Shown piece after piece: positions 31,451-63,290 of a stretch of 64,000 bases of DNA; the stretch's first letter is position 1; every line of letters starts with the position of its first letter. This stretch comes from an uncultured Solibacteraceae bacterium. GTDB taxonomy: Bacteria > Acidobacteriota > Vicinamibacteria > Vicinamibacterales > SCN-69-37. The position numbers were made by a program, and so were the translations under genes. The DNA lies in the NCBI GenBank assembly GCA_964489685.1, contig CAZAZR010000001.1, forward strand, positions 732 to 64,731, given 5' to 3'. Below the pieces are notes generated by a model that saw only the letters and a program-made list of their open reading frames with translations, was not told where the DNA came from and searched no databases.

Positions 31451-32320
31451 ATGTCTGTACTGATTGATAAGTCGACGCGTCTGGTGGTGCAGGGGCTGAC
31501 GGGCCGCGAGGGAACGTTTCACGCCAAGCAGGCCCAGGCCTATGGCACGAACGTGGTGGGAGGCGTGACGCCCGGCAAGGGCGGCACCACGCATGAGGGC
31601 TGGCCGGTGTTCAACACGGTGGCCGATGCGGTGGCGGCCACCGGCGCCAATGCGTCGGTCATCTTTGTGCCGCCTCCCGGCGGTGCCGACGCGGTCATGG
31701 AGGCTGCCGATGCCGGACTGGCGCTGGCCGTCTGCATCACCGAGGGCATCCCGACGCTGGACATGATGAAGGCGCTGGCCTTCATGAAGGGCACCGGGAT
31801 GCGTCTCATCGGGCCGAACTGCCCGGGTCTGATTTCGGCCGGCCGGGCCAAGGCCGGCATCATCCCCGGCCACATCTGCAAGGAAGGCCGGGTGGGCATC
31901 GTGTCGAAGTCGGGCACGCTGACCTACGAGGCCATTCACCAGTTGACCGGCAACGGCCTGGGGCAGACCACCTGTATCGGCATTGGCGGCGACCCGCTCA
32001 TCGGCACCTCGTTCATCGACGCGCTCACGTTGTTTGCGGCCGACCCCGAGACCGAAGCCGTGGTGATGATTGGCGAAATTGGCGGCTCGGCTGAAGAAGA
32101 GGCCGCGGCCTACATCAAGGCGTCGTTCAAGAAACCCGTGGTGGGCTTCATCGCCGGCCAGACGGCCCCCCCGGGGCGCCGGATGGGGCACGCCGGCGCC
32201 ATCATCGCCGGAGGCAAGGGCACCGCGGCCGAGAAGATGGCCGCCCTCACCGACGCCGGCGTGCGCGTGGTCAACAGCCCCGCCGACATTGGAAGGGCGA
32301 TGGCGGAACTGATCGGGTAA
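31451..32320 (+). CDS. sucD: Succinyl-CoA synthetase alpha subunit
   Basis: [27 protein letters not shown] ... SRSGTLTYE-like [11 protein letters not shown] ... MGHAGAII (phosphohistidine loop). Confidence 0.95.
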
Positions 32321-32361
32321 GGGCTTCTCAGGGTGCGGAGGGCGTCTTGGGATGCGGAAGC

Positions 32362-32445
32362 GGGGACGGGTGTGGATCTGTGGGAAACTCCGGGAACTCT
32401 GATCGCGATGTTCCGGGAGTTTTCCACAGATCCACACCCGTCCCC
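32362..32445. repeat. 84-nt palindromic (hairpin) repeat element, intergenic copy
   Basis: Left arm ggggacgggtgtggatctgtgggaaactccgggaac (32362-32397), a 12-nt loop, and right arm gttccgggagttttccacagatccacacccgtcccc (32410-32445). About 34 of 36 positions pair. A sibling copy lies at 59349-59435. Confidence 0.85.
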
Positions 32446-32461
32446 TTATACTTACTAGATT

Positions 32462-34300
32462 ATGTCCTCGCCGTCCGCCACGGCCGCACCGGCCGAGTCT
32501 CCTGCCTCCCAACTCGTCGTCAATAACTTCAGCATTTCAGTCGCCACCGTCAACGGGTCTGGCAGTCAGACGGCCAACCAGGTGCTGCTGCGCGCCATCT
32601 TCCAGATGGGCGTGCCGATTTCAGGCAAGAACATGTTCCCGTCGAACATCGCGGGACTTCCGACGTGGTACACCATTCGTGCGAATGCCAAGGGCTACAT
32701 CGCCCGCAAGAAGGAAATCGATTTCCTGGTCGCGATGAATGCCGAAACGGCGCGCGAAGACGTCCTGTCGCTCGACCCGGGTCGGGCGGTGGTCTACGAC
32801 GCGCCACTGAAGCTCAATGAACTGCGCGACGACCTGATGTTTTATCCCGTCCCGTTCGACAAGATCGTCGCCGAGGTGTGTCCGGACGCCAAGCTCCGGC
32901 GCCTGGTCAAGAACATGATCTACGACGGCATCCTGTCGCACCTGCTCGGTGTGGAGCTGAGCGAAATGGTGAAGGCCCTGTCATCGCAGCTCGGCAAGAA
33001 GCCGAAGGCGATGGCGCTCAACCAGGGCGCGCTCGAAGCCGGCGCGACGTACGCCCAGGAACACTTCCCGGAGATCACGCATCCGTACCGGATTGAGCGG
33101 ATGAACGGCACCGCAGGACAGATCCTGGTGGAAGGCAATTCGGCTGCGGCGATGGGCTGCATGTTCGCCGGCTGTACCGTGGTCGCGTGGTATCCCATCA
33201 CGCCCTCGTCGTCGTTGCCTGAGGCGTTGATTGGATACATGCGCAAATACCGCATGGATAAGGAGACCGGCAAGGCGACGTTTGCCATCGTGCAGGCCGA
33301 AGATGAAATTGCGGCGCTCGGCATGGTGATTGGCGCGAGCTGGGCGGGCGCTCGGGCGATGACGTCCACGTCGGGGCCCGGTATTTCATTGATGTCGGAG
33401 TTCGCGGGCCTGGCGTATTACGCCGAGGTGCCGGCCGTGGTGTTTGACATTCAGCGCGTGGGCCCTTCTACCGGTTTGCCTACGCGCACGGCGCAGGGCG
33501 ACATCCTCTTTGCCGCGATCAACTCCCACGGCGACACCAAACACGTCCTGCTGCTTCCGTCGTCCATGACCGAGTGCTTCGATATGGCCGCCGACGCGTT
33601 TGACTTGTCCGAGCGCCTCCAGAGCATCGTGTTTGTGATGAGCGACCTGGATCTGGGCATGAACACCTGGATGTCGGAGCCGTTCATCTATCCCGCCAAG
33701 CCGCTGGATCGCGGCAAAGTGCTCGACGAGGCGAAGGTGCGCGAATTGGGCGCCACGTGGGGCCGCTACAAGGACGTGGATGGCGACGGGATCCCCTGGC
33801 GCTCATTACCCGATACGAACACGCCGCCGTTTTTTACACGTGGGTCGGGCCACAACGCGATGGCGCAGTATTCAGAGCGCGCCGAAGACTACGTGACCAA
33901 CCTGGATCGCCTCGCGAAGAAATTCGAGACGGCCAAGGGCCTGGTGCCGCAGCCGGTGGATGAAACGGTGCCTGGCGCCACAGTCGGCATCATTGCCTAC
34001 GGGTCCAGTCACTGGGCGGTGGAAGAGGCGCGCGACCAGTTGCGTGAGGAGGCGTCACTGCCGGTCTCGTACCTGCGGCTGCGCGCGTATCCATTCCCCG
34101 ACGCAGTGGAAGACTTCGTGCGCCGCCACGACCGGGTGTATGTGGTGGAGCAGAACCGTGACGCGCAGATGATGAGCCTGCTGCGCATGGACCTTGCCCC
34201 GGCCCTGCAGACGCGGTTGCGAAGCGTGCTGCACTACAGCGGTTTGCCGATCGACGCCCGCAGCGTCACCCAGAACATCCTCGCGCAGGAGAACTCGTAA
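32462..34300 (+). CDS. korA: 2-oxoglutarate/2-oxoacid:ferredoxin oxidoreductase alpha subunit
   Basis: FSISVATVNGSGSQTANQVLLRAIFQMGVPISGKNMFPSNIAGLPTWY, then the PFOR domain I pattern GNSAAAMGCMFAGCTVVAWYPITPSS. Confidence 0.9.
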   Translation: MSSPSATAAPAESPASQLVVNNFSISVATVNGSGSQTANQVLLRAIFQMGVPISGKNMFPSNIAGLPTWYTIRANAKGYIARKKEIDFLVAMNAETAREDVLSLDPGRAVVYDAPLKLNELRDDLMFYPVPFDKIVAEVCPDAKLRRLVKNMIYDGILSHLLGVELSEMVKALSSQLGKKPKAMALNQGALEAGATYAQEHFPEITHPYRIERMNGTAGQILVEGNSAAAMGCMFAGCTVVAWYPITPSSSLPEALIGYMRKYRMDKETGKATFAIVQAEDEIAALGMVIGASWAGARAMTSTSGPGISLMSEFAGLAYYAEVPAVVFDIQRVGPSTGLPTRTAQGDILFAAINSHGDTKHVLLLPSSMTECFDMAADAFDLSERLQSIVFVMSDLDLGMNTWMSEPFIYPAKPLDRGKVLDEAKVRELGATWGRYKDVDGDGIPWRSLPDTNTPPFFTRGSGHNAMAQYSERAEDYVTNLDRLAKKFETAKGLVPQPVDETVPGATVGIIAYGSSHWAVEEARDQLREEASLPVSYLRLRAYPFPDAVEDFVRRHDRVYVVEQNRDAQMMSLLRMDLAPALQTRLRSVLHYSGLPIDARSVTQNILAQENS

Positions 34301-36447: not shown

Positions 36448-36669
36448 ATGAAAACAGGATCTCTTGTTGGCGTGGTGTTGATTGTGCTCGGCCTTTTGGC
36501 GTTGGCGTATCAGGGCTTCTCCTACACGAGCCGCGAGAAGGTTCTTGATATCGGGCCGCTTGAGGCGCACGCCGATACCGAGAAGACGGTGGCGATTCCG
36601 CCCATCGCCGCAGGCGCGGCCGTGCTCGTGGGTCTCGTGCTGGTCGTGGCCGGACGTAAATCAGGCTAG
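36448..36669 (+). CDS. Small two-TM membrane protein (DUF3185-like)
   Basis: MKTGSLVGVVLIVLGLLALAYQGFSYTSREKVLDIGPLEAHADTEKTVAIPPIAAGAAVLVGLVLVVAGRKSG. The pattern G-G/Q-F-S-Y-T...IP...G matches my recollection of DUF3185. Confidence 0.65.
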   Translation: MKTGSLVGVVLIVLGLLALAYQGFSYTSREKVLDIGPLEAHADTEKTVAIPPIAAGAAVLVGLVLVVAGRKSG

Positions 36670-36743
36670 CGGCCGTCCGTAGCGCGGCCGCCGTCCGTAG
36701 CGCGGCCGCCGTCCGTAGCGCGGCCGCCGTCCGTAGCGCGGCC
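36667..36743. repeat. 18-bp tandem repeat (gtccgtagcgcggccgcc), about 4.3 copies
   Basis: Read directly: three perfect units at 36675-36728, a partial unit on each side, beginning at the stop codon of the upstream small gene. Confidence 0.9.
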
Positions 36744-36745
36744 TG

Positions 36746-36781
36746 GGTCTCAAGGCCGCGGCGACCCGCGGCCTTGGGACC
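36746..36781 (+). terminator. GC-rich 16-bp-stem hairpin without a U-tract (possible terminator or RNA stabiliser)
   Basis: ggtctcaaggccgcgg cgac ccgcggccttgggacc, with one G-U position. No T-run follows. Confidence 0.4.
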
Positions 36782-36814
36782 TGGGCCGCACTTCCGCGTG
36801 TACGCCGCTCCCCC

Positions 36815-38917
36815 GTGAGACACTGCCTTCTTGTGCTGATCCCCTCACTCTGGCGCGGCGGCGTCATTGCGGCCGCCATCGTGATCGCAGGCGGTGCGGC
36901 GATCGCGTCGGCGGCCGAGCCTGGGCCGTCGGCCGGGCAGGCGTTGCTTGACGTGCCCTACGTGACTCAGACACCCGAATTGTGCGGCGGCGCGGCGGTC
37001 GCCATGGTGTTGCGTTATTGGGGGCAACGCGAGGTGTTCGCCGAAGACTTCGCCGCACTCGTCGTCCCCAGCGAGCGTGGCATTCCCACGGGTGCCCTTG
37101 TGGCGGCCGTCCGCGACCGCGCATGGCAGGCCGTGGTGTTGCCGGTCACTGATGATACGGGTCACGCGCGCATTCGCACCGAGGTGGCCCAGGGGCGTCC
37201 GCTCATCGCCTTGATCGAAGTCGCGCCCCGCACCTACCACTACGTCGTCATCGTCGGCGCCACCGGTGATCAGGTGGTGTTGCATGACCCCGCACGGGCG
37301 CCGTTTCGGGTGTTGACGTGGGCAGAGTTCGACCGCGCGTGGGCGGTCACGAATCGCTGGAGCATGCTGATCCTGCCGCCAGAGGCCGGTCGTCTGCTTT
37401 CGCCGCCGGTCACGGTCAAGCCCGCCATACCCGGCCCTGAGGGTCCAGTGACTCCCTGTGACGGGCTCGTCGCGCGCGGCGTGACCCTGGCGCGTGGCGG
37501 TGAGGGTGCGGCGGCCGAGCAGGCACTTGTGGCGGCCACCACCATGTGTCCGAAGAATCCCGTCGCATGGCAGGAACTGGCGGGATGGCGATTCTCCGAG
37601 TCACGGTGGGCCGAGAGCGAGCGTTTTGCGAGCATGGCTGTGCGGCTGGCGCCCACTGACGAGTACGCGCGTCGGCTCCTCGGTACCAGCCGGTATCTGC
37701 TTGGGGATGAGGTCGGCGCTCTGACCGCGTGGACGCCTCTTGGTGAGCCGCGTATCGATGCGATCGACGTGCGGGGCGCCGAGCGCACCCGCCACCCCGT
37801 GGTGGTGAGAGCCACAGGGTTGCAGCCACGTCAACTGCTGACGGCCGACGTGTTCGAGCGTGCGCGGCGGAGACTGGACGCACTGCCGGTTGCCTCGCGT
37901 GCGCGCCTTCAATATGAACCGCTCGATGCCGGCCTGGCCAAAGTCGATGCGGTCATTGCGGAGCGGCCAGTGGTGCCGTGGGGATGGCGGCCGCTGGCCA
38001 CCATCGGCATTCGCGCCGCGGTCAGTCGCGAAGTGCGCGTGGACGTGGCGGGCGCACTGGGAGCCGGCGAATTGGCGGCCTTCTCGTGGCGATGGCGATC
38101 GGCGCGGCCGCGTGTCGCCTTCAGTCTGGCGGTGCCGTCCCCCCACTGGATTCCCGGCGTCGTGTCGGTGACGGGCTTGTGGGAGCGCCAGTCGTACCAG
38201 ACGCCCGCGACGACGGCCGCGGCCGCGGAGCCGCTGGTGGAACGGCGCCGTCGTGCCGGCGTGTCGATGGCTGATTGGGCCACGAGCCGGATCCGGTGGC
38301 ATGGCGGCATCGCGATGGATCGCTTTGACTCGCGTGGCCATGTGGCGCTGGATGGCGGCCTTGAGTTCCGCCTGGCCGGTGATCACGTGGCGCTTGGCAT
38401 GCTGGGCGGCGGTTGGGTCCCGCTCTCGGGCGGCGATCCATTTGCGTCAGGGCGTGTGCGAGCCGCGTGGCGATCGACGATGGAGTTGCATGCGCCCTTG
38501 TGGACGGGCAGCGTGGCGCTTGCGAGTGCGGGGCGGTCGGCGCCGCTGGCGCTGTGGGAAGGGGCCGGCGGCGGGCATGCCCGTTCGGGCCTGCTCCGCG
38601 CCCATCGTCTGCTCACAGACGATGTGGTGACGGGGGAGGCGTTTGGGCGCACGTTTGCGTATGGCACCACGGAGTATGCGCGGCCGGTGGGCCGTGTGAT
38701 GGCTGGTGCCATTGCGGTCGCGGGTTTTGTGGATGTGGCTCGGACCTGGCATCGCCTGAGCACGTCGGACCGATCGGCGCTTCTGGTGGACGCGGGCGCG
38801 GGAGTGAGAATCAGCACGGCGGGCCGCACGGAAGTGTTACGGATCGATGTGGCGCAGGGGCTTCGTGGTGGAGGCACCAGGGTGTCGGTCACATGGGGAC
38901 GCGCCTGGCCGTGGTGA
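36815..38917 (+). CDS. Fusion protein: C39-like (PA2778-type) cysteine peptidase - TPR - POTRA - Omp85/surface-antigen beta-barrel
   Basis: N-terminal hydrophobic segment. Peptidase motifs VPYVTQTPELCGGAAVAMVLRYWG (Gln/Cys) and YHYVVIVGATGDQVVLHDP (His/Asp). TPR-like helices (aa ~215-300). POTRA-like IDAIDVRGAERTRHPVVVRATGLQPRQLLT...ARLQYEPLDAGLAKVDAVIAERP. Barrel motifs GFVDVARTW and GVRISTAGRTEVLRIDVAQGL...VTWGRAWPW (aromatic C-terminus). Confidence 0.75.
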   Translation: MRHCLLVLIPSLWRGGVIAAAIVIAGGAAIASAAEPGPSAGQALLDVPYVTQTPELCGGAAVAMVLRYWGQREVFAEDFAALVVPSERGIPTGALVAAVRDRAWQAVVLPVTDDTGHARIRTEVAQGRPLIALIEVAPRTYHYVVIVGATGDQVVLHDPARAPFRVLTWAEFDRAWAVTNRWSMLILPPEAGRLLSPPVTVKPAIPGPEGPVTPCDGLVARGVTLARGGEGAAAEQALVAATTMCPKNPVAWQELAGWRFSESRWAESERFASMAVRLAPTDEYARRLLGTSRYLLGDEVGALTAWTPLGEPRIDAIDVRGAERTRHPVVVRATGLQPRQLLTADVFERARRRLDALPVASRARLQYEPLDAGLAKVDAVIAERPVVPWGWRPLATIGIRAAVSREVRVDVAGALGAGELAAFSWRWRSARPRVAFSLAVPSPHWIPGVVSVTGLWERQSYQTPATTAAAAEPLVERRRRAGVSMADWATSRIRWHGGIAMDRFDSRGHVALDGGLEFRLAGDHVALGMLGGGWVPLSGGDPFASGRVRAAWRSTMELHAPLWTGSVALASAGRSAPLALWEGAGGGHARSGLLRAHRLLTDDVVTGEAFGRTFAYGTTEYARPVGRVMAGAIAVAGFVDVARTWHRLSTSDRSALLVDAGAGVRISTAGRTEVLRIDVAQGLRGGGTRVSVTWGRAWPW

Positions 38918-56580: not shown

Positions 56581-56584
<4 letters not shown>
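55421..56584 (-). CDS. AAA-type ATPase-like protein with C-terminal winged-helix (Arch_ATPase/COG1672-like); Walker A Lys replaced by Arg
   Basis: [15 protein letters not shown] (GxxGxGR-T instead of GK-T), FLFDEILD (Walker B), and C-terminal [30 protein letters not shown] (wHTH-like). The ATGA overlap (56581-56584) with hutU implies co-translation. Confidence 0.65.
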
Positions 56585-58260
<1,676 letters not shown>

Positions 58261-58340: not shown

Positions 58341-59924
58341 TCAGGACAATTGAAGTGTGCACGCGCGCTCCAGGGTGCCATCGCAGATGAGCGCGCCGAT
58401 GGTCTGAATATCGGGCGCCGGCGCACGATCGACGGTCAACATCGGCACCACCGCGCGCACGGCGGCGTGTACGGCCTGTAACGGCGAGGCGGTCCTGAGC
58501 GGCGCCAGAAGATCGAGCGCCTGCGCGGCGGCCAGCACTTCGATCGCCAGAACGTGCGTGAGCAGATCGGCGATGCGCGCGGCTTTGAGCGCAGCGCCCA
58601 TGCTCATGCTCACGTGGTCTTCGCGGCCCGCCGACGTGGGGATGGTATCCACCGACGCGGGCGACGCCAGCGTCTTGATCTCGGCGGTCAGCGCGGCCGC
58701 CGTGACGTGTGCCATCATCAGTCCCGAATTGAGGCCGGAGTCGCGAATCAGAAATGCGGGCAGGCCGCTTTCGTGCGGCGTCATCATCCGGTCGGTGCGC
58801 CGTTCGCTGATCGTGGCGAGTTGGGCCAACCCGATGCAGAGCGTATCGGCAGCCAGGGCGACGGGCGCGCCATGGAAGTTGCCCCCAGACACAATGTCGC
58901 CCTCTTCGGCAAAGACCATCGGGTTGTCGGTGGCCGAGTTGGCTTCGATCGTGGCCAGGCGATGGGCAAACCCGATCGCCTCACGCGCCGAGCCATGCAC
59001 CTGCGGCGTACACCGCAGCGCGTAGGCGTCCTGCACTTTGCCGCAGTGGGCATGCGAGGCATTGATCGCACTGCCGTCAAGCAGTGCACGCACGTTGGCC
59101 GCCGCCGCGGCCTGGCCGGGCACCGGCCGCGCGTCGTGGATGCGACTGTCAAATGGCTTCAGTGATCCGCGCAGGGCATCGATGCTCATCGCTGCGGCAA
59201 TGTCGGCCGCGCGCGCCAGGCGCATCGCGCACTGTACGGCCAGGGCCAGCACACCGGTGCTGGCCTGTGTGCCATTGATGAGCGCCAGACCCTCTTTCGG
59301 GCCGAGGAGCACCGGGGCCAGGCCTGCGGCCTGGAGTGCTGGAAGAGAGGGGAACGGGTGTCGATCTGTGGAACACTCCCGGGCCTTCGCACCGTTCGTG
59401 GCCCCGGAGTGTTCCACAGATCGACACCCGTCCCCCTTCAAAACCTCTCCTTCGCCGATGAGGACCAGCGCGAGGTGGGCGAGGGGTGCGAGGTCGCCAC
59501 TGGCGCCCACCGACCCGCGCGACGGCACACGCGGGTGGACGCCGGCGTTGATGAGCGCGAGCAGCGCGTCGAGTGTCGAGAGCCGAATGCCCGAGCGTCC
59601 GCGCGCCAGCACATTCGCGCGCAGCACCATGACCGCGCGCACCTCGGCGACCGACAGCGGCGTGTCCACGCCCGCCGCATGGCTGCGGATCAGGTTCACC
59701 TGCAGGGCGGCGAGTTGGTCGGCCGGAATGACTACCTCGGCCAGCGCACCGAATCCCGTGTTGATGCCGTAGACCGGCTCAGGACGCGCAGCATGCGCAT
59801 CCACCACCGCGCGCGCCGCAGTGACGCGCACTGCCGCTTCGGGTGCCAGCCCGACCCGAACACGGTCCGAGGCCACGCGTTGCAGATCGTCAAGAGTGAG
59901 GGAGTGACCGTCGAGGAGAACCAT
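58341..59924 (-). CDS. hutH: Histidine ammonia-lyase carrying a 29-codon in-frame palindromic-element insertion
   Basis: GSVGASGDLAPLAH (MIO-forming Ala-Ser-Gly), KEGLALINGTQ, QDAYALRC. The inserted segment GDGCRSVEHSGATNGAKARECSTDRHPFP is encoded by the repeat at 59349-59435. Confidence 0.9.
   Translation of the reverse strand: MVLLDGHSLTLDDLQRVASDRVRVGLAPEAAVRVTAARAVVDAHAARPEPVYGINTGFGALAEVVIPADQLAALQVNLIRSHAAGVDTPLSVAEVRAVMVLRANVLARGRSGIRLSTLDALLALINAGVHPRVPSRGSVGASGDLAPLAHLALVLIGEGEVLKGDGCRSVEHSGATNGAKARECSTDRHPFPSLPALQAAGLAPVLLGPKEGLALINGTQASTGVLALAVQCAMRLARAADIAAAMSIDALRGSLKPFDSRIHDARPVPGQAAAAANVRALLDGSAINASHAHCGKVQDAYALRCTPQVHGSAREAIGFAHRLATIEANSATDNPMVFAEEGDIVSGGNFHGAPVALAADTLCIGLAQLATISERRTDRMMTPHESGLPAFLIRDSGLNSGLMMAHVTAAALTAEIKTLASPASVDTIPTSAGREDHVSMSMGAALKAARIADLLTHVLAIEVLAAAQALDLLAPLRTASPLQAVHAAVRAVVPMLTVDRAPAPDIQTIGALICDGTLERACTLQLS
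59349..59435. repeat. 87-nt palindromic (hairpin) repeat element, intragenic copy within hutH
   Basis: Arms ggggaacgggtgtcgatctgtggaacactcccgggc (59349-59384) and gccccggagtgttccacagatcgacacccgtcccc (59401-59435), with a 16-nt loop. The arms share the ggggacgggtgt.gatctgtgg.aa.actcc.ggg core with the 32362-32445 copy. Confidence 0.85.
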
Positions 59925-59938
59925 GGGACTGAGATTGA

Positions 59939-61692
<1,754 letters not shown>

Positions 61693-61727: not shown

Positions 61728-62444
61728 GTGCCCGTCCTCCTCTGCGACCTCGACGACACGCTCTTTGACCATGAACGGGCCACCCGCGACGCACTTGATA
61801 ATCTGCGCGGCGGCTATCAGGTTTTGACCCGGTGGTCACTGGATGAACTCGATAGTCGACACCGAGTGCTGCTCGAGTCCATTCACATCGATGTGCTCAA
61901 CGGCCGACTATCGATCGAGGACGCGCGGCGGGAGCGATTCGGGCGACTGCTGGCCCAGGCCGGCGTGGAAGACCGCGCGGCGACCGAGGCAATTGCGGGC
62001 GCGTACCGCGAGGCCTACGCCTCGAAGTGGCAGCCGGTGCCTGGCGCGATCGAGTTCCTGTGTGCCGTGCGCGCGGCGGGGTATGCCATCGTGATCGTCA
62101 CAAACAACGGGGTGGCCGAGCAGCAGCTGAAGCTCGTGCGGTGCGGATTTGATGGTCTCGTCGACGCGATGGTGACCTCTGAAGAAGCCGGTGTGAGTAA
62201 ACCCGGCCGGGGCATCTTTGCACAGGCGTTGGCGCGCGTCGGGTCGACGTCGGGTGAGGCGGTGATGCTCGGCGACGCGTGGGTCGCCGACATCGAAGGC
62301 GCACGGGCCATCGGTGTGGCACCGGTGTGGTTCAATCGCGCGGGGCGGCCGAGCCCGGATCCGACCGTGGCGGAACTGGCGTCGCTCGCACCGGCCGCGG
62401 ACGCCGTGGCGATCGTCACGCGCGCGGGCGTTCGGTCAGCGTGA
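61728..62444 (+). CDS. HAD-superfamily hydrolase (subfamily IA-like)
   Basis: LLCDLDDTLFDH (DxD motif I), VIVTNNG, SKPGRGIF, LGDAWVADIEGA. Confidence 0.8.
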   Translation: MPVLLCDLDDTLFDHERATRDALDNLRGGYQVLTRWSLDELDSRHRVLLESIHIDVLNGRLSIEDARRERFGRLLAQAGVEDRAATEAIAGAYREAYASKWQPVPGAIEFLCAVRAAGYAIVIVTNNGVAEQQLKLVRCGFDGLVDAMVTSEEAGVSKPGRGIFAQALARVGSTSGEAVMLGDAWVADIEGARAIGVAPVWFNRAGRPSPDPTVAELASLAPAADAVAIVTRAGVRSA

Positions 62445-63290
62445 CCGGCCCCGGTTCGCGGTTGCCAACCCAATGCCGACGACCACAAGTACCATCGACG
62501 CGCCGAGCCGCCAGGTCAGTCGCTCGTGGAGCAAGAGCGTCGCCCCCAGCGCCGTCAGCACTGGTACTGACAGTTGGATTGTAGCGGCGCGCCAGACGGG
62601 AAGACGTGGGAGCACCGCATACCAGGCGGCGTACGCCAGGCCGGACGCGAGCGCGCCGGAGGCCGCGGCCAGCGCCAGGCCGGTGGCTGTGTAGGGGCCT
62701 GTCATCCCGATCGGCATGGCGATCACCACCCCGATGGCGGCGGCACGCAGGAAGTTGTCGGCGGTGACCGCGAGCGGATCGGTGGCGCCGCGGCCGGCCA
62801 GCGAATAGGCGCCCCAGCACGCACCGGCTCCGGCCATCAGGACCGCGCCCGCCGGGTCGGGCGCACTCAGGCCAGGCAGGGTCAGGACCAGGAAGCCAAC
62901 CAGGGAGAGCGCGACGCCAATCCCGTGCCGCGGCGACAACGTTTCGCCGCGCGCGAGGGCGGCGGCGAACATGGTGAGTTGGACGCTGCCAAAGAGCAGG
63001 AGCGCGCCCGGTGCCGCGTCAATGCGAACATACGCGAGGGTAAAGAGCACGGCGTAGCCGGCGAGCCACAGGCTCATGAGCCATGAGCCGCGCCCGGAAA
63101 CGGAACACGACCTCTGAGGTCGTGTTGTTTGCGCCGCAACCAGGATCGCCAGCATGATGGCGCCGGTGACCAACCGCACCACCATGAACGTCCACGCGTC
63201 AAGGTGATGGCCGCGGATGGCGGCGCGTGTCATCAGGGAGTTGGCCGCGAAGCCGAACAGTGCGAAGGTGGTGAGTGTCAGCAGGCGCAA
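62436..63290 (-). CDS. EamA/DMT family transporter
   Basis: Ten hydrophobic segments in two homologous halves; FAANSLMTRAA ... and WGAYSLAGR are typical EamA repeats. Confidence 0.8.
   Translation of the reverse strand: MRLLTLTTFALFGFAANSLMTRAAIRGHHLDAWTFMVVRLVTGAIMLAILVAAQTTRPQRSCSVSGRGSWLMSLWLAGYAVLFTLAYVRIDAAPGALLLFGSVQLTMFAAALARGETLSPRHGIGVALSLVGFLVLTLPGLSAPDPAGAVLMAGAGACWGAYSLAGRGATDPLAVTADNFLRAAAIGVVIAMPIGMTGPYTATGLALAAASGALASGLAYAAWYAVLPRLPVWRAATIQLSVPVLTALGATLLLHERLTWRLGASMVLVVVGIGLATANRGRSR

Follow-up and report, generated by a model that had tools for sequence, protein, structure and literature searches.

In-frame palindromic hairpin repeats in histidine ammonia-lyase and other genes of Vicinamibacterales

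Palindromes that lie in-frame within protein-coding sequences are generally treated as peculiar to Rickettsia. Rickettsia palindromic elements (RPEs) form families of palindromic repeats with a large share of copies situated in-frame in unrelated housekeeping genes (Ogata et al. 2000, 2002, as summarised in PMC10969869 and PMC3733652), and a 2024 review merely speculates that the same route of protein evolution is taken elsewhere (PMC10969869). The element described here is a palindromic hairpin of 90 nt situated in-frame in hutH, the gene for histidine ammonia-lyase (HAL), of an uncultured Solibacteraceae bacterium (order Vicinamibacterales, phylum Acidobacteriota). The DNA analyzed, termed the window, is a stretch of 64,000 nt from assembly GCA_964489685.1 (contig CAZAZR010000001.1, positions 732 to 64,731). 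The hairpin belongs to a repeat family, termed family A, with both intergenic and intragenic copies.

Several other repeat systems are relevant. A first-pass annotation of the window had likened the hutH hairpin to RPEs and had considered such in-frame insertions rare outside Rickettsia. The likeness holds, but the confinement does not, since repetitive extragenic palindromic (REP) sequences inside open reading frames (ORFs) have been reported in several bacterial species (PMC3733652). TIRtrons are families of long inverted repeats, distinct from REPs, that flank TIRYT genes, which resemble the genes for REP-associated tyrosine transposases (RAYTs). Some of their terminal inverted repeats (TIRs) carry the motif GGGGWSAS, and acidobacterial sequences make up one well-defined TIRYT group (Di Nocera et al. 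2013, PMC3733652). CGTC-tagged REPs have a stem of 8–9 bp, a loop of 4–5 nt, a terminal CGTC and a short CCA-like tail (Di Nocera 2013). Bacterial MITEs (miniature transposable elements with inverted repeats) with occasional in-frame copies include ERIC, Correia/NEMIS, Nezha and the Anabaena MITEs (review PMC10969869).

Like the RPEs, family A has many copies in-frame in unrelated genes (at least 9 of 42, see below), and the peptide segments are at positions compatible with the protein fold. In addition, orthologues inherit the copies, a dedicated transposase is not known, and there is no obvious target-site duplication. The hosts differ, however: they are of another phylum and free-living, with large high-GC genomes, whereas RPE hosts are obligate intracellular bacteria with reduced genomes. 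The elements are also shorter (70–90 nt, compared with roughly 100–150 nt) and, unlike RPEs, have a 31-nt arm that is sharply conserved, a palindromic centre that is hypervariable, and frequent nesting with a second REP-like family, and several families are recurrently found in the same loop. By analogy, family A may be said to work like an RPE, but it does not appear to be a member of RPE-1 to RPE-10, being set apart by its Vicinamibacterales host and the lack of an Rfam match; a relationship in sequence is not expected either.

The palindromic insertion in hutH

An inverted-repeat search shows that the hutH hairpin has 38-nt arms, which are 95% complementary, and a 14-nt spacer. The element encompasses positions 59348..59437 (no strand assigned); its ends, A-G-GGGA...CCCC-C-T, were set with the consensus of 88 family arms. 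Based on the inverted repeat and the family consensus, the left arm (plus strand) is at 59348..59385 and the right arm at 59400..59437. The apical loop of 14 nt, TTCGCACCGTTCGT on the plus strand, is at 59386..59399 and is inverted relative to orthologous copies L072 and L078 (L numbers denote collected loci, P numbers protein sequences). Within the left arm, positions 59348–59378 form the conserved 31-nt family arm, with a G>A change at 59353 and an A>C variant, GGAACACTC; positions 59379–59385 form a variable inner stem. The predicted RNA fold of the coding strand has an energy of −85 kcal/mol, compared with −40 ± 4 kcal/mol for shuffled sequences (z = −11.8, with 0 of 200 shuffles as stable), and that of the plus strand −78.3 kcal/mol.

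Codons 164–192 of hutH (positions 59435–59349, minus strand) translate without a stop as GDGCRSVEHSGATNGAKARECSTDRHPFP. This segment is flanked by GEGEVLK and SLPALQAAGL and lies 21 residues past the Ala141-Ser142-Gly143 triad. It contains a predicted tryptic peptide, SVEHSGATNGAK, at HutH residues 169–180. A probable one-sided tail is found at 59341..59349 (no strand assigned), GGAAGAGAG on the plus strand and CTCTCTTCC on the coding strand, which overlaps the first two arm bases (59348–59349). The same 9-mer adjoins the hairpin in hutH of the window and of L072, in lpxK (L017, L023, L061) and in L025. On the coding strand it encodes part of the S-L-P that follows the hairpin. The 9-mer is therefore probably part of the element, so some of the SLPA residues may be derived from it.

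The gene itself, hutH (58341..59924, minus strand), is an intact ORF of 527 aa that matches the Pfam Lyase_aromatic domain (PF00221) with E = 1e-179. Its product matches solved HAL structures with E = 1e-125 to 1e-116 and has every residue invariant in the family, including A141-S142-G143, which makes it a HAL. When aligned with the Pseudomonas putida HAL (1gkm), about 23 residues are unmatched at the position of the insert. The loop is 24–29 aa in orthologues without the repeat and 50 aa in the window; e.g. the empty-site orthologues L075 and L079 have 24–26 residues between GEG and KEGLALINGT, where the window has 50. Comparison with these orthologues shows that the hutH segment is an insertion.

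The HutH protein of the window is present with 100% identity on two further contigs; the near-identical P0001 is found on four contigs and P0002 on ten. The contigs with identical or near-identical HutH come from independent JGI, ENA, NCBI and Logan assemblies. Those HutH relatives that are named carry the annotation Vicinamibacterales or Acidobacteriota, and the gene order purA-hutH-hutU is kept in orthologous loci; in the window, purA is at 59957–61255 (plus strand) and hutU at 56581–58260 (minus strand).

An AlphaFold2 model of HutH, built from an alignment of 61 sequences, has a mean predicted local distance difference test score (pLDDT) of 85 and a predicted template modelling score of 0.88. 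Residues 165–187 are below a pLDDT of 50 and show no secondary structure, with short strands at 160–161 and 191–192 on either side. The model fits a disordered surface excursion of about 29 residues at the tip of a surface beta-hairpin.

These results bear out what the first-pass annotation had observed and proposed for hutH. The hairpin is confirmed, and the estimates of arms of about 35 nt and a 16-nt loop are close to the measured values. The minus-strand reading between GEGEVLK and SLPALQAAGL is open, and its distance from the ASG motif that forms the MIO (4-methylideneimidazole-5-one) group had been put at about 20 residues. HAL orthologues were expected to have a short loop at this site, and those without the repeat indeed lack the 29-residue segment. 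An assembly artefact had been named as a possible objection, and the insertion is recovered in independent assemblies. The suggested surface position of the loop fits the predicted structure.

Family A and its copies in other loci

An exact scan for the 18-mer ACGGGTGTSGATCTGTGG, with one genome per species, gave 71 stretches; by our own estimate about 35 hits would be expected by chance in 596 Gb. Unpaired matches in unrelated taxa are about as numerous as chance would give. Paired inverted matches are confined to Vicinamibacterales or Acidobacteria metagenome-assembled genomes (MAGs), namely Baikal-deep-G11, F1-60-MAGs081, ant_bin.512, ant_bin.222, SLM_MC1B_24-G04, Ww335 and two MFD bins. 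When mismatches are allowed, 46 complete elements are present in the collected loci, from at least eight MAG species, and every arm has its partner less than 220 nt away except where a contig ends. In the window there are four occurrences of the 24-nt arm core (0 expected). Thus the repeat family proposed by the first-pass annotation, on the basis of the hutH hairpin and one intergenic sibling, is not a coincidence of two copies: many further copies exist, and many of them are intragenic and in-frame.

The arm consensus (88 arms) is 31 nt long, A-R-GGGG-ACGGGTGTCGATCTGTGG-AAAACTC (also A-R-GGGGACGGGTGTCGATCTGTGGAAAACTC), and flanks beyond it are random. The same consensus is found across the eight or more species, which come from lakes, soils and Antarctica. 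The centre of the element varies in both sequence and length, yet is self-complementary, and there are size classes of about 70 and about 85 nt. Partial tandem duplications are present in L017, L022, L067 and L069.

A 14-nt tail related to the hutH 9-mer, ATCGGGGnnnATAG (or ATTCGGGAnnATAG), adjoins one side of the hairpin; in L071 both sides have it. The tail is found at six independent loci (loci listed with it are L001, L024, L030, L037, L042, L059 and L071), is translated in UvrC and MutS2, and is a probable part of the element. Further flank modules (GGAGACCTAGGTTTCTAG, CGGGATCCACATAG) recur at family A copies, which suggests mosaics similar to bacterial interspersed mosaic elements (BIMEs). 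A purine-rich flank, CAAGAnAA, was considered as a target motif and dismissed, as it represents heterogeneous gene-start, gene-end or ribosome-binding-site sequence.

Searches elsewhere gave no relatives of family A. Rfam yielded only generic long-hairpin miRNA models, far under their gathering scores, and no known RNA family; a BLAST search of plasmids gave no match to the element. A scan of viral contigs with the arm core gave one hit, which has neither a partner arm nor a GGGG/CCCC end and is read as a chance match. In the literature, such elements were not found described for Vicinamibacteria; this search did not cover the contents of a 2026 preprint that mentions REPs, "in-frame" and hairpins within coding sequence (10.64898/2026.09.22.753630). 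A perfect 29-nt family A arm is also present at the end of a contig labelled Planctomycetota (L029:16-44, JACDEN010000358.1). This contig is probably a mis-binned acidobacterial one; horizontal transfer is possible.

At least 9 of the 42 complete copies that came from the DNA scan or the window are in-frame in Pfam-supported ORFs, and these represent six gene families: HutH, UvrC, MutS2, MetH, a glycosyltransferase and Cox1-Cox3 fusions. In the genes other than hutH, Pfam domains on both sides of the element confirm that the reading frames belong to real genes. In MetH (L018) the copy is between the S-methyltransferase and pterin-binding domains, and in a GT4 glycosyltransferase (L020) between the two Rossmann halves. 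UvrC has a copy in L030 and in the orthologue L037, the latter identified by translation, and MutS2 has an in-frame copy in L071. In the Cox1-Cox3 fusions the copy forms part of the linker after the Cox1 domain; both domains are matched in L053 and L058, and Cox1 alone is within the locus in L060. The orthologous copies are kept in two MAGs for UvrC and in three MAG species for the Cox1-Cox3 linker, where they have diverged strongly but remain largely compensated.

All three reading frames are in use, giving peptides of the types GDGCRSVENS, GTGVDLWKT and GRVSICGKL. The arm consensus is free of stops on both strands, and simple copies are typically open in four to six of the six frames; at the GC content of the hosts this openness is only mildly unusual. 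The length of intragenic copies modulo 3 is uninformative, since tails and secondary indels blur the length of the insertion.

The intergenic sibling in the window, noted earlier at 32362–32445, is a real copy, with 36-nt arms that are 94% complementary. With family ends it encompasses 32360..32447 (no strand assigned), displays the arm variant GTGGATC/GATCCAC and has an orthologous copy in L065. It is 41 nt past the stop codon of the ORF at 31451–32320, and the ATG (32462) of a 2-oxoacid:ferredoxin oxidoreductase gene (32462–34300) lies 16 nt beyond it. Start codons are similarly found 14–22 nt downstream of copies in L002/L025 and L004. A weak sigma-70-like match (TCCACA, 18 nt, TATACT) overlaps the right arm of the sibling; a terminator scan of this copy showed none. 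An unrelated hairpin is present at 36735–36792 (27-nt arms, 85% complementary, 4-nt spacer), just upstream of an ORF with its start at 36815. A 15-nt tandem repeat (~36650–36730) is found next to this hairpin and reads as four copies of AALRT in a spurious minus-strand ORF.

Orthologous copies, paired changes and the HutH loop

The element occupies the same position and frame of hutH in L072 (P0002), L074 (P0005), L077 (P0021) and L078 (P0023), as well as in L009 and L055 (with a family B unit nested in it) and L081 (with a nested B' unit). The hutH orthologues that carry it show about 77–90% aa identity. Those compared at four-fold degenerate sites have 80–90% identity in protein and 53–65% at these sites, which is near saturation. 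The window and L072 share 90% of aa positions, but only 64.5% of four-fold sites are identical, which indicates that hutH is under purifying selection. The hutH insertion is common to orthologues that are saturated at synonymous sites and is old.

Differences between the orthologous hutH copies are mainly paired, such that a change in one arm is matched in the other. The window has GTGGAAC/GTTCCAC where L072 has GTAGAAA/TTTCTAC; other examples are GGGTGTC/GACACCC versus GGGGGTC/GACCCCC in L074, and GATCTG/CAGATC versus GACCTG/CAGGTC in L078. Within each element of the family the arm variants are matched. In an alignment of 20 simple copies, 93.4% of the cells are paired and 15 of the 35 pairs show changes on both sides, which none of 500 shuffles matched; shifting the partner columns reduces the pairing to 33–53%. 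G-U intermediates account for about 15 cells, compared with 31 double changes.

The loop of the window copy differs from that of its orthologue in another way. The plus-strand loop of the window, TTCGCACCGTTCGT, matches the coding-strand loop of L072, TTCCCATCGTCCGT, at 11 of 14 positions, whereas on the same strand only 1 of 14 positions agrees. The lone mismatch of the inner stem is mirrored as well between the window and the L072 and L078 copies. The flank CTCTCTTCC, however, is on the same side in spite of the flipped loop. As this one-sided flank has not moved, the flip took place inside the element, by exchange between the arms or template switching, and not by re-insertion. The comparison shows that the central loop was flipped in the lineage of the window.

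The loop that carries the element is the only frequent site of internal indels among 118 full-length HutH homologues. Five or more extra residues are present here in 55 of them, and every other internal site has extra residues in at most one sequence. DNA was compared for 77 distinct HutH loops. In the 61 loops of 32 aa or less, the best inverted repeat has a median of 8 bp and reaches 15 bp in only one; an inverted repeat of 15–53 bp is present in 12 of the 16 loops that are 33 aa or longer. The hairpins in this loop belong to at least five families: family A, families B and B', family C (AAGACCTCGGGGGTCG...) and further types (L097, L098). Nested composites of 120–150 nt, at least 12 cases, have a second REP-like unit at the apex, either as a single unit or as an inverted dimer; the units are GAAAAGACGTCGGGTGTCTTTT (family B) and AAAACGACCTCTGAGGTCGTTTT (family B'). 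Family A and otherwise different hairpin families (L097, L098, L076, L123) have the core CGGGTGTC/GACACCCG in common. The shared core may serve as a recognition motif for all of them, in which case the families would form a superfamily.

In a rough neighbour-joining tree of HutH, family C is found in one clade and B and B' in another, and family A is patchy (P0001-3, P0005, P0021, P0023). Tree neighbours of the family A proteins have shorter, in-frame versions of the loop: in P0004 the element and part of the loop are gone, P0011 reads GHPSSLA, P0012 GDGG and P0019 GD..RH. These four look like deletion derivatives. The 91-residue loop of a metagenomic hutH homologue (L107:1001-2704) consists of a GSG-type tandem repeat and other sequence, with no long inverted repeat, and represents a different way to enlarge the same permissive site.

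UvrC (P0121-P0240) shows a similar picture, with two variable linkers, at about residues 285–320 and 467, filled by palindrome-encoded peptides of several families. Even the "empty" linker TSEVVS...DLRG is coded by a palindrome, ACCTCTGAGGTC being the reverse complement of GACCTCAGAGGT. The B' unit is found singly or as a dimer in the HutH and UvrC loops of relatives. In the window, a perfect 23-nt palindrome of this family, AACACGACCTCTGAGGTCGTGTT (63104..63126, no strand assigned), is in-frame in an ORF for an EamA-type transporter (62436–63290, minus strand), where it reads ..QTTRPQRSCS.. and apparently lies in a loop flanked by hydrophobic helices.

Origin, maintenance and significance

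Family A shares several properties with REP/REPIN sequences (REPINs are REP doublets that form hairpins), which are mobilised by RAYTs, HUH tyrosine transposases similar to those of IS200/IS605, and with BIME mosaics. The inverted doublet constitutes one long hairpin, its halves covary, with compensatory changes, so that the doublet evolves as one, target-site duplications are absent, and singles, dimers, partial tandem duplications and mosaics with other short motifs all occur. On the other hand, the arm has no GTAG at its end: outside the GGGG the consensus is A and then R, with random positions beyond. ATAG is seen in the one-sided tail of some copies only, and GTAG once. The arm is also not itself a clear palindrome of 20–40 nt, at least a fifth of the copies are intragenic, and there is no RAYT gene beside any copy in the collected locus DNA. 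The arm begins with GGGGACGG, which agrees with seven of the eight positions of the TIRtron motif GGGGWSAS (as quoted in PMC3733652), but no TIRYT gene flanked by the arm was located, and the genomes in which acidobacterial TIRtrons have been described are of the Terriglobia type (Koribacter, Terriglobus and others) and not of Vicinamibacteria. The arm end, ...CACCCGTCCCC, has a CGTC followed by a C-run, although a stem of 35–38 bp and a loop of 12–14 nt are unlike the CGTC-tagged REPs.

Taken together, family A is probably a selfish, non-autonomous hairpin repeat family of Vicinamibacterales, similar to REPs/REPINs and RPEs, that is tolerated in permissive loops and linkers of proteins. This supports the first-pass reading of a REP/MITE-like hairpin that can land in, and be tolerated by, coding sequence. 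In the proposed course of events, an ancestor of the hutH lineage would have received the element in the DNA for the tip of the surface beta-hairpin that follows the MIO motif. The gene may have stayed open because the arms are stop-free on both strands and the net change in length preserved the frame, and translation of the insert would then give a disordered loop of about 29 residues. Selection on host proteins would act as a filter, such that copies last only between genes, near start codons, or where a protein loop or inter-domain linker is permissive. The hairpin may be kept up by correction that it templates itself (through intrastrand template switching or repair inside it) or by selection for the hairpin. 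At later stages the centre would flip by exchange between arms, smaller REP-like dimers would insert into the apex, and internal deletions, always in-frame, would erode or remove the element.

As for mobilisation, the hairpin formed by the whole element, the lack of a duplication, the nesting at the apex and the resemblance to GGGGWSAS make a route via single-stranded hairpin DNA and an HUH tyrosine transposase of the RAYT/TIRYT type the most likely one, although we put it forward only tentatively. A tblastn search of about 850 kb of collected locus sequence with an E. coli RAYT gave nothing better than E ~1, a weak negative. Autonomous copies, sought in the collected loci as arms 0.3–3 kb apart, were not found, and no pair is more than 220 nt apart. 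In the 46 elements there is no excess of flanking direct repeats at offsets of 0–16 and lengths of 3–9.

Several points weigh against a mobile element that is simply tolerated. We infer its mobility, past or present, and no presence/absence polymorphism between near-identical genomes was found. The same 850 kb shows no transposase between or beside arms. Copies with the exact core look modest in number, about 3–16 per MAG, but MAG assemblies are prone to break where repeats occur. That the peptide is translated is predicted from the open frame in the DNA. Finally, the 2 × 31 arm positions are 82–92% identical between hutH orthologues, compared with 53–65% at four-fold sites, and the binomial probability of this excess is about 1e-7 to 1e-10. 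Arm conservation thus exceeds the neutral expectation, and decaying junk is insufficient to explain it; gene conversion from other copies, re-insertion, selection at the family level for transposition competence, or a host function or constraint is required. This is the main observation that plain "tolerated junk" leaves unexplained.

One way to account for it is that the arms are under purifying selection at the nucleotide level even where they are translated, and are read by a protein of the host or the element, or by an RNA process (RNase III). We consider this rather unlikely. A related proposal, and in our judgement also an unlikely one, is a selected cis-acting hairpin, in which the 31-nt arm binds a host protein (compare BIME and REP sequences, which bind integration host factor, gyrase and DNA polymerase I) or the long perfect RNA stem acts on hutH and other mRNAs, tuning them as a signal for RNase III or for ribosome pausing. 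Arm conservation at the orthologous sites, a single consensus in eight or more species, strong covariation, the copies kept in UvrC and in the Cox1-Cox3 linker, and the copies 14–22 nt before start codons, the window sibling among them, would all be expected of such a signal. Yet the hosts are functionally unrelated, and the positions follow permissive loops and linkers, with no regulatory position in common. Close relatives have deleted the element and kept hutH, and the presence of several unrelated hairpin families in one HutH loop fits tolerance better than a specific function. An RNA role gains no special support from the G-U intermediates, which are a minority, nor is there an Rfam family match.

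The remaining explanations concern how the palindrome arose. A deletion derivative of an insertion sequence (IS) or Tn3-family element, i.e. a classical MITE moved by a DDE transposase, is very unlikely. The dimensions would agree, as the terminal inverted repeats are about 31 nt and the whole element is 70–150 nt, which is in the MITE range, and family A resembles MITEs in being small and non-autonomous and in its capacity for in-frame fusion with host ORFs. Tn3 terminal repeats start with GGGG and contain GGAA..AAAACTC, and the arm resembles them; the Tn3-like terminal repeat was rejected, as the 5-bp duplication is lacking. The MITEs named above are DDE-derived, with target-site duplications and non-palindromic interiors, whereas here the whole element is one hairpin, its centre being itself palindromic and covarying, which is unusual for an IS-derived MITE, and the 46 copies show no duplication at any offset or length tried. 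No long copy has an ORF between the arms, and no parent IS with the same terminal inverted repeats was found in the collected loci, plasmids or viral contigs. Alternatively, nothing was inserted, and a native hypervariable loop of hutH was made palindromic locally by template switching or duplication-inversion, the likeness to the copy at 32362 being secondary. The loop does vary in length across all HALs, and template switches that generate palindromes are an established mutational mechanism, but at least eight species have a base-identical 31-nt arm in intergenic regions as well as in unrelated genes, and the short "empty" loops hold inverted repeats of only 6–12 bp. The family census effectively refutes this explanation, which is highly improbable. 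The likelihood of an assembly or chimera artefact, a fold-back at the repeat, is negligible: MAG contigs do often end in the element (L006, L008, L009, L055, L062), but the insertion is present with lineage-specific substitutions in independent assemblies from different samples and assemblers, and the reading frame is intact in every one.

The hairpin repeats of Vicinamibacterales represent a new phylum for a known kind of element, and show the phenomenon in an abundant free-living order of soil and freshwater with large high-GC genomes. Several hairpin families are involved, and the enzymes affected are core ones (HutH, UvrC, MutS2, MetH and cytochrome oxidase). What distinguishes the system is the free-living host phylum, the number of core genes, the recurrent and nested use of one loop by several families, and the conservation of arms at synonymous saturation. 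If the arms are indeed under selection, conserved hairpin sites set in coding sequence would form a network across the genomes of Vicinamibacterales; flipping and nesting would yield peptide and regulatory variants, and the protein linkers of this order would for the most part be made of such elements.

There are practical aspects as well. The elements break MAG assemblies and inflate the apparent loop diversity of protein families, and they mark permissive insertion sites for protein engineering. The filled, nested, flipped, eroded and empty alleles of a single loop, spread over a phylogeny, constitute natural experiments. With these it is now testable what mobilises palindromic repeats that have no transposase, whether hairpin symmetry is due to selection or to template-switch correction, and how easily enzymes absorb 30–60 extra residues in surface loops and linkers.

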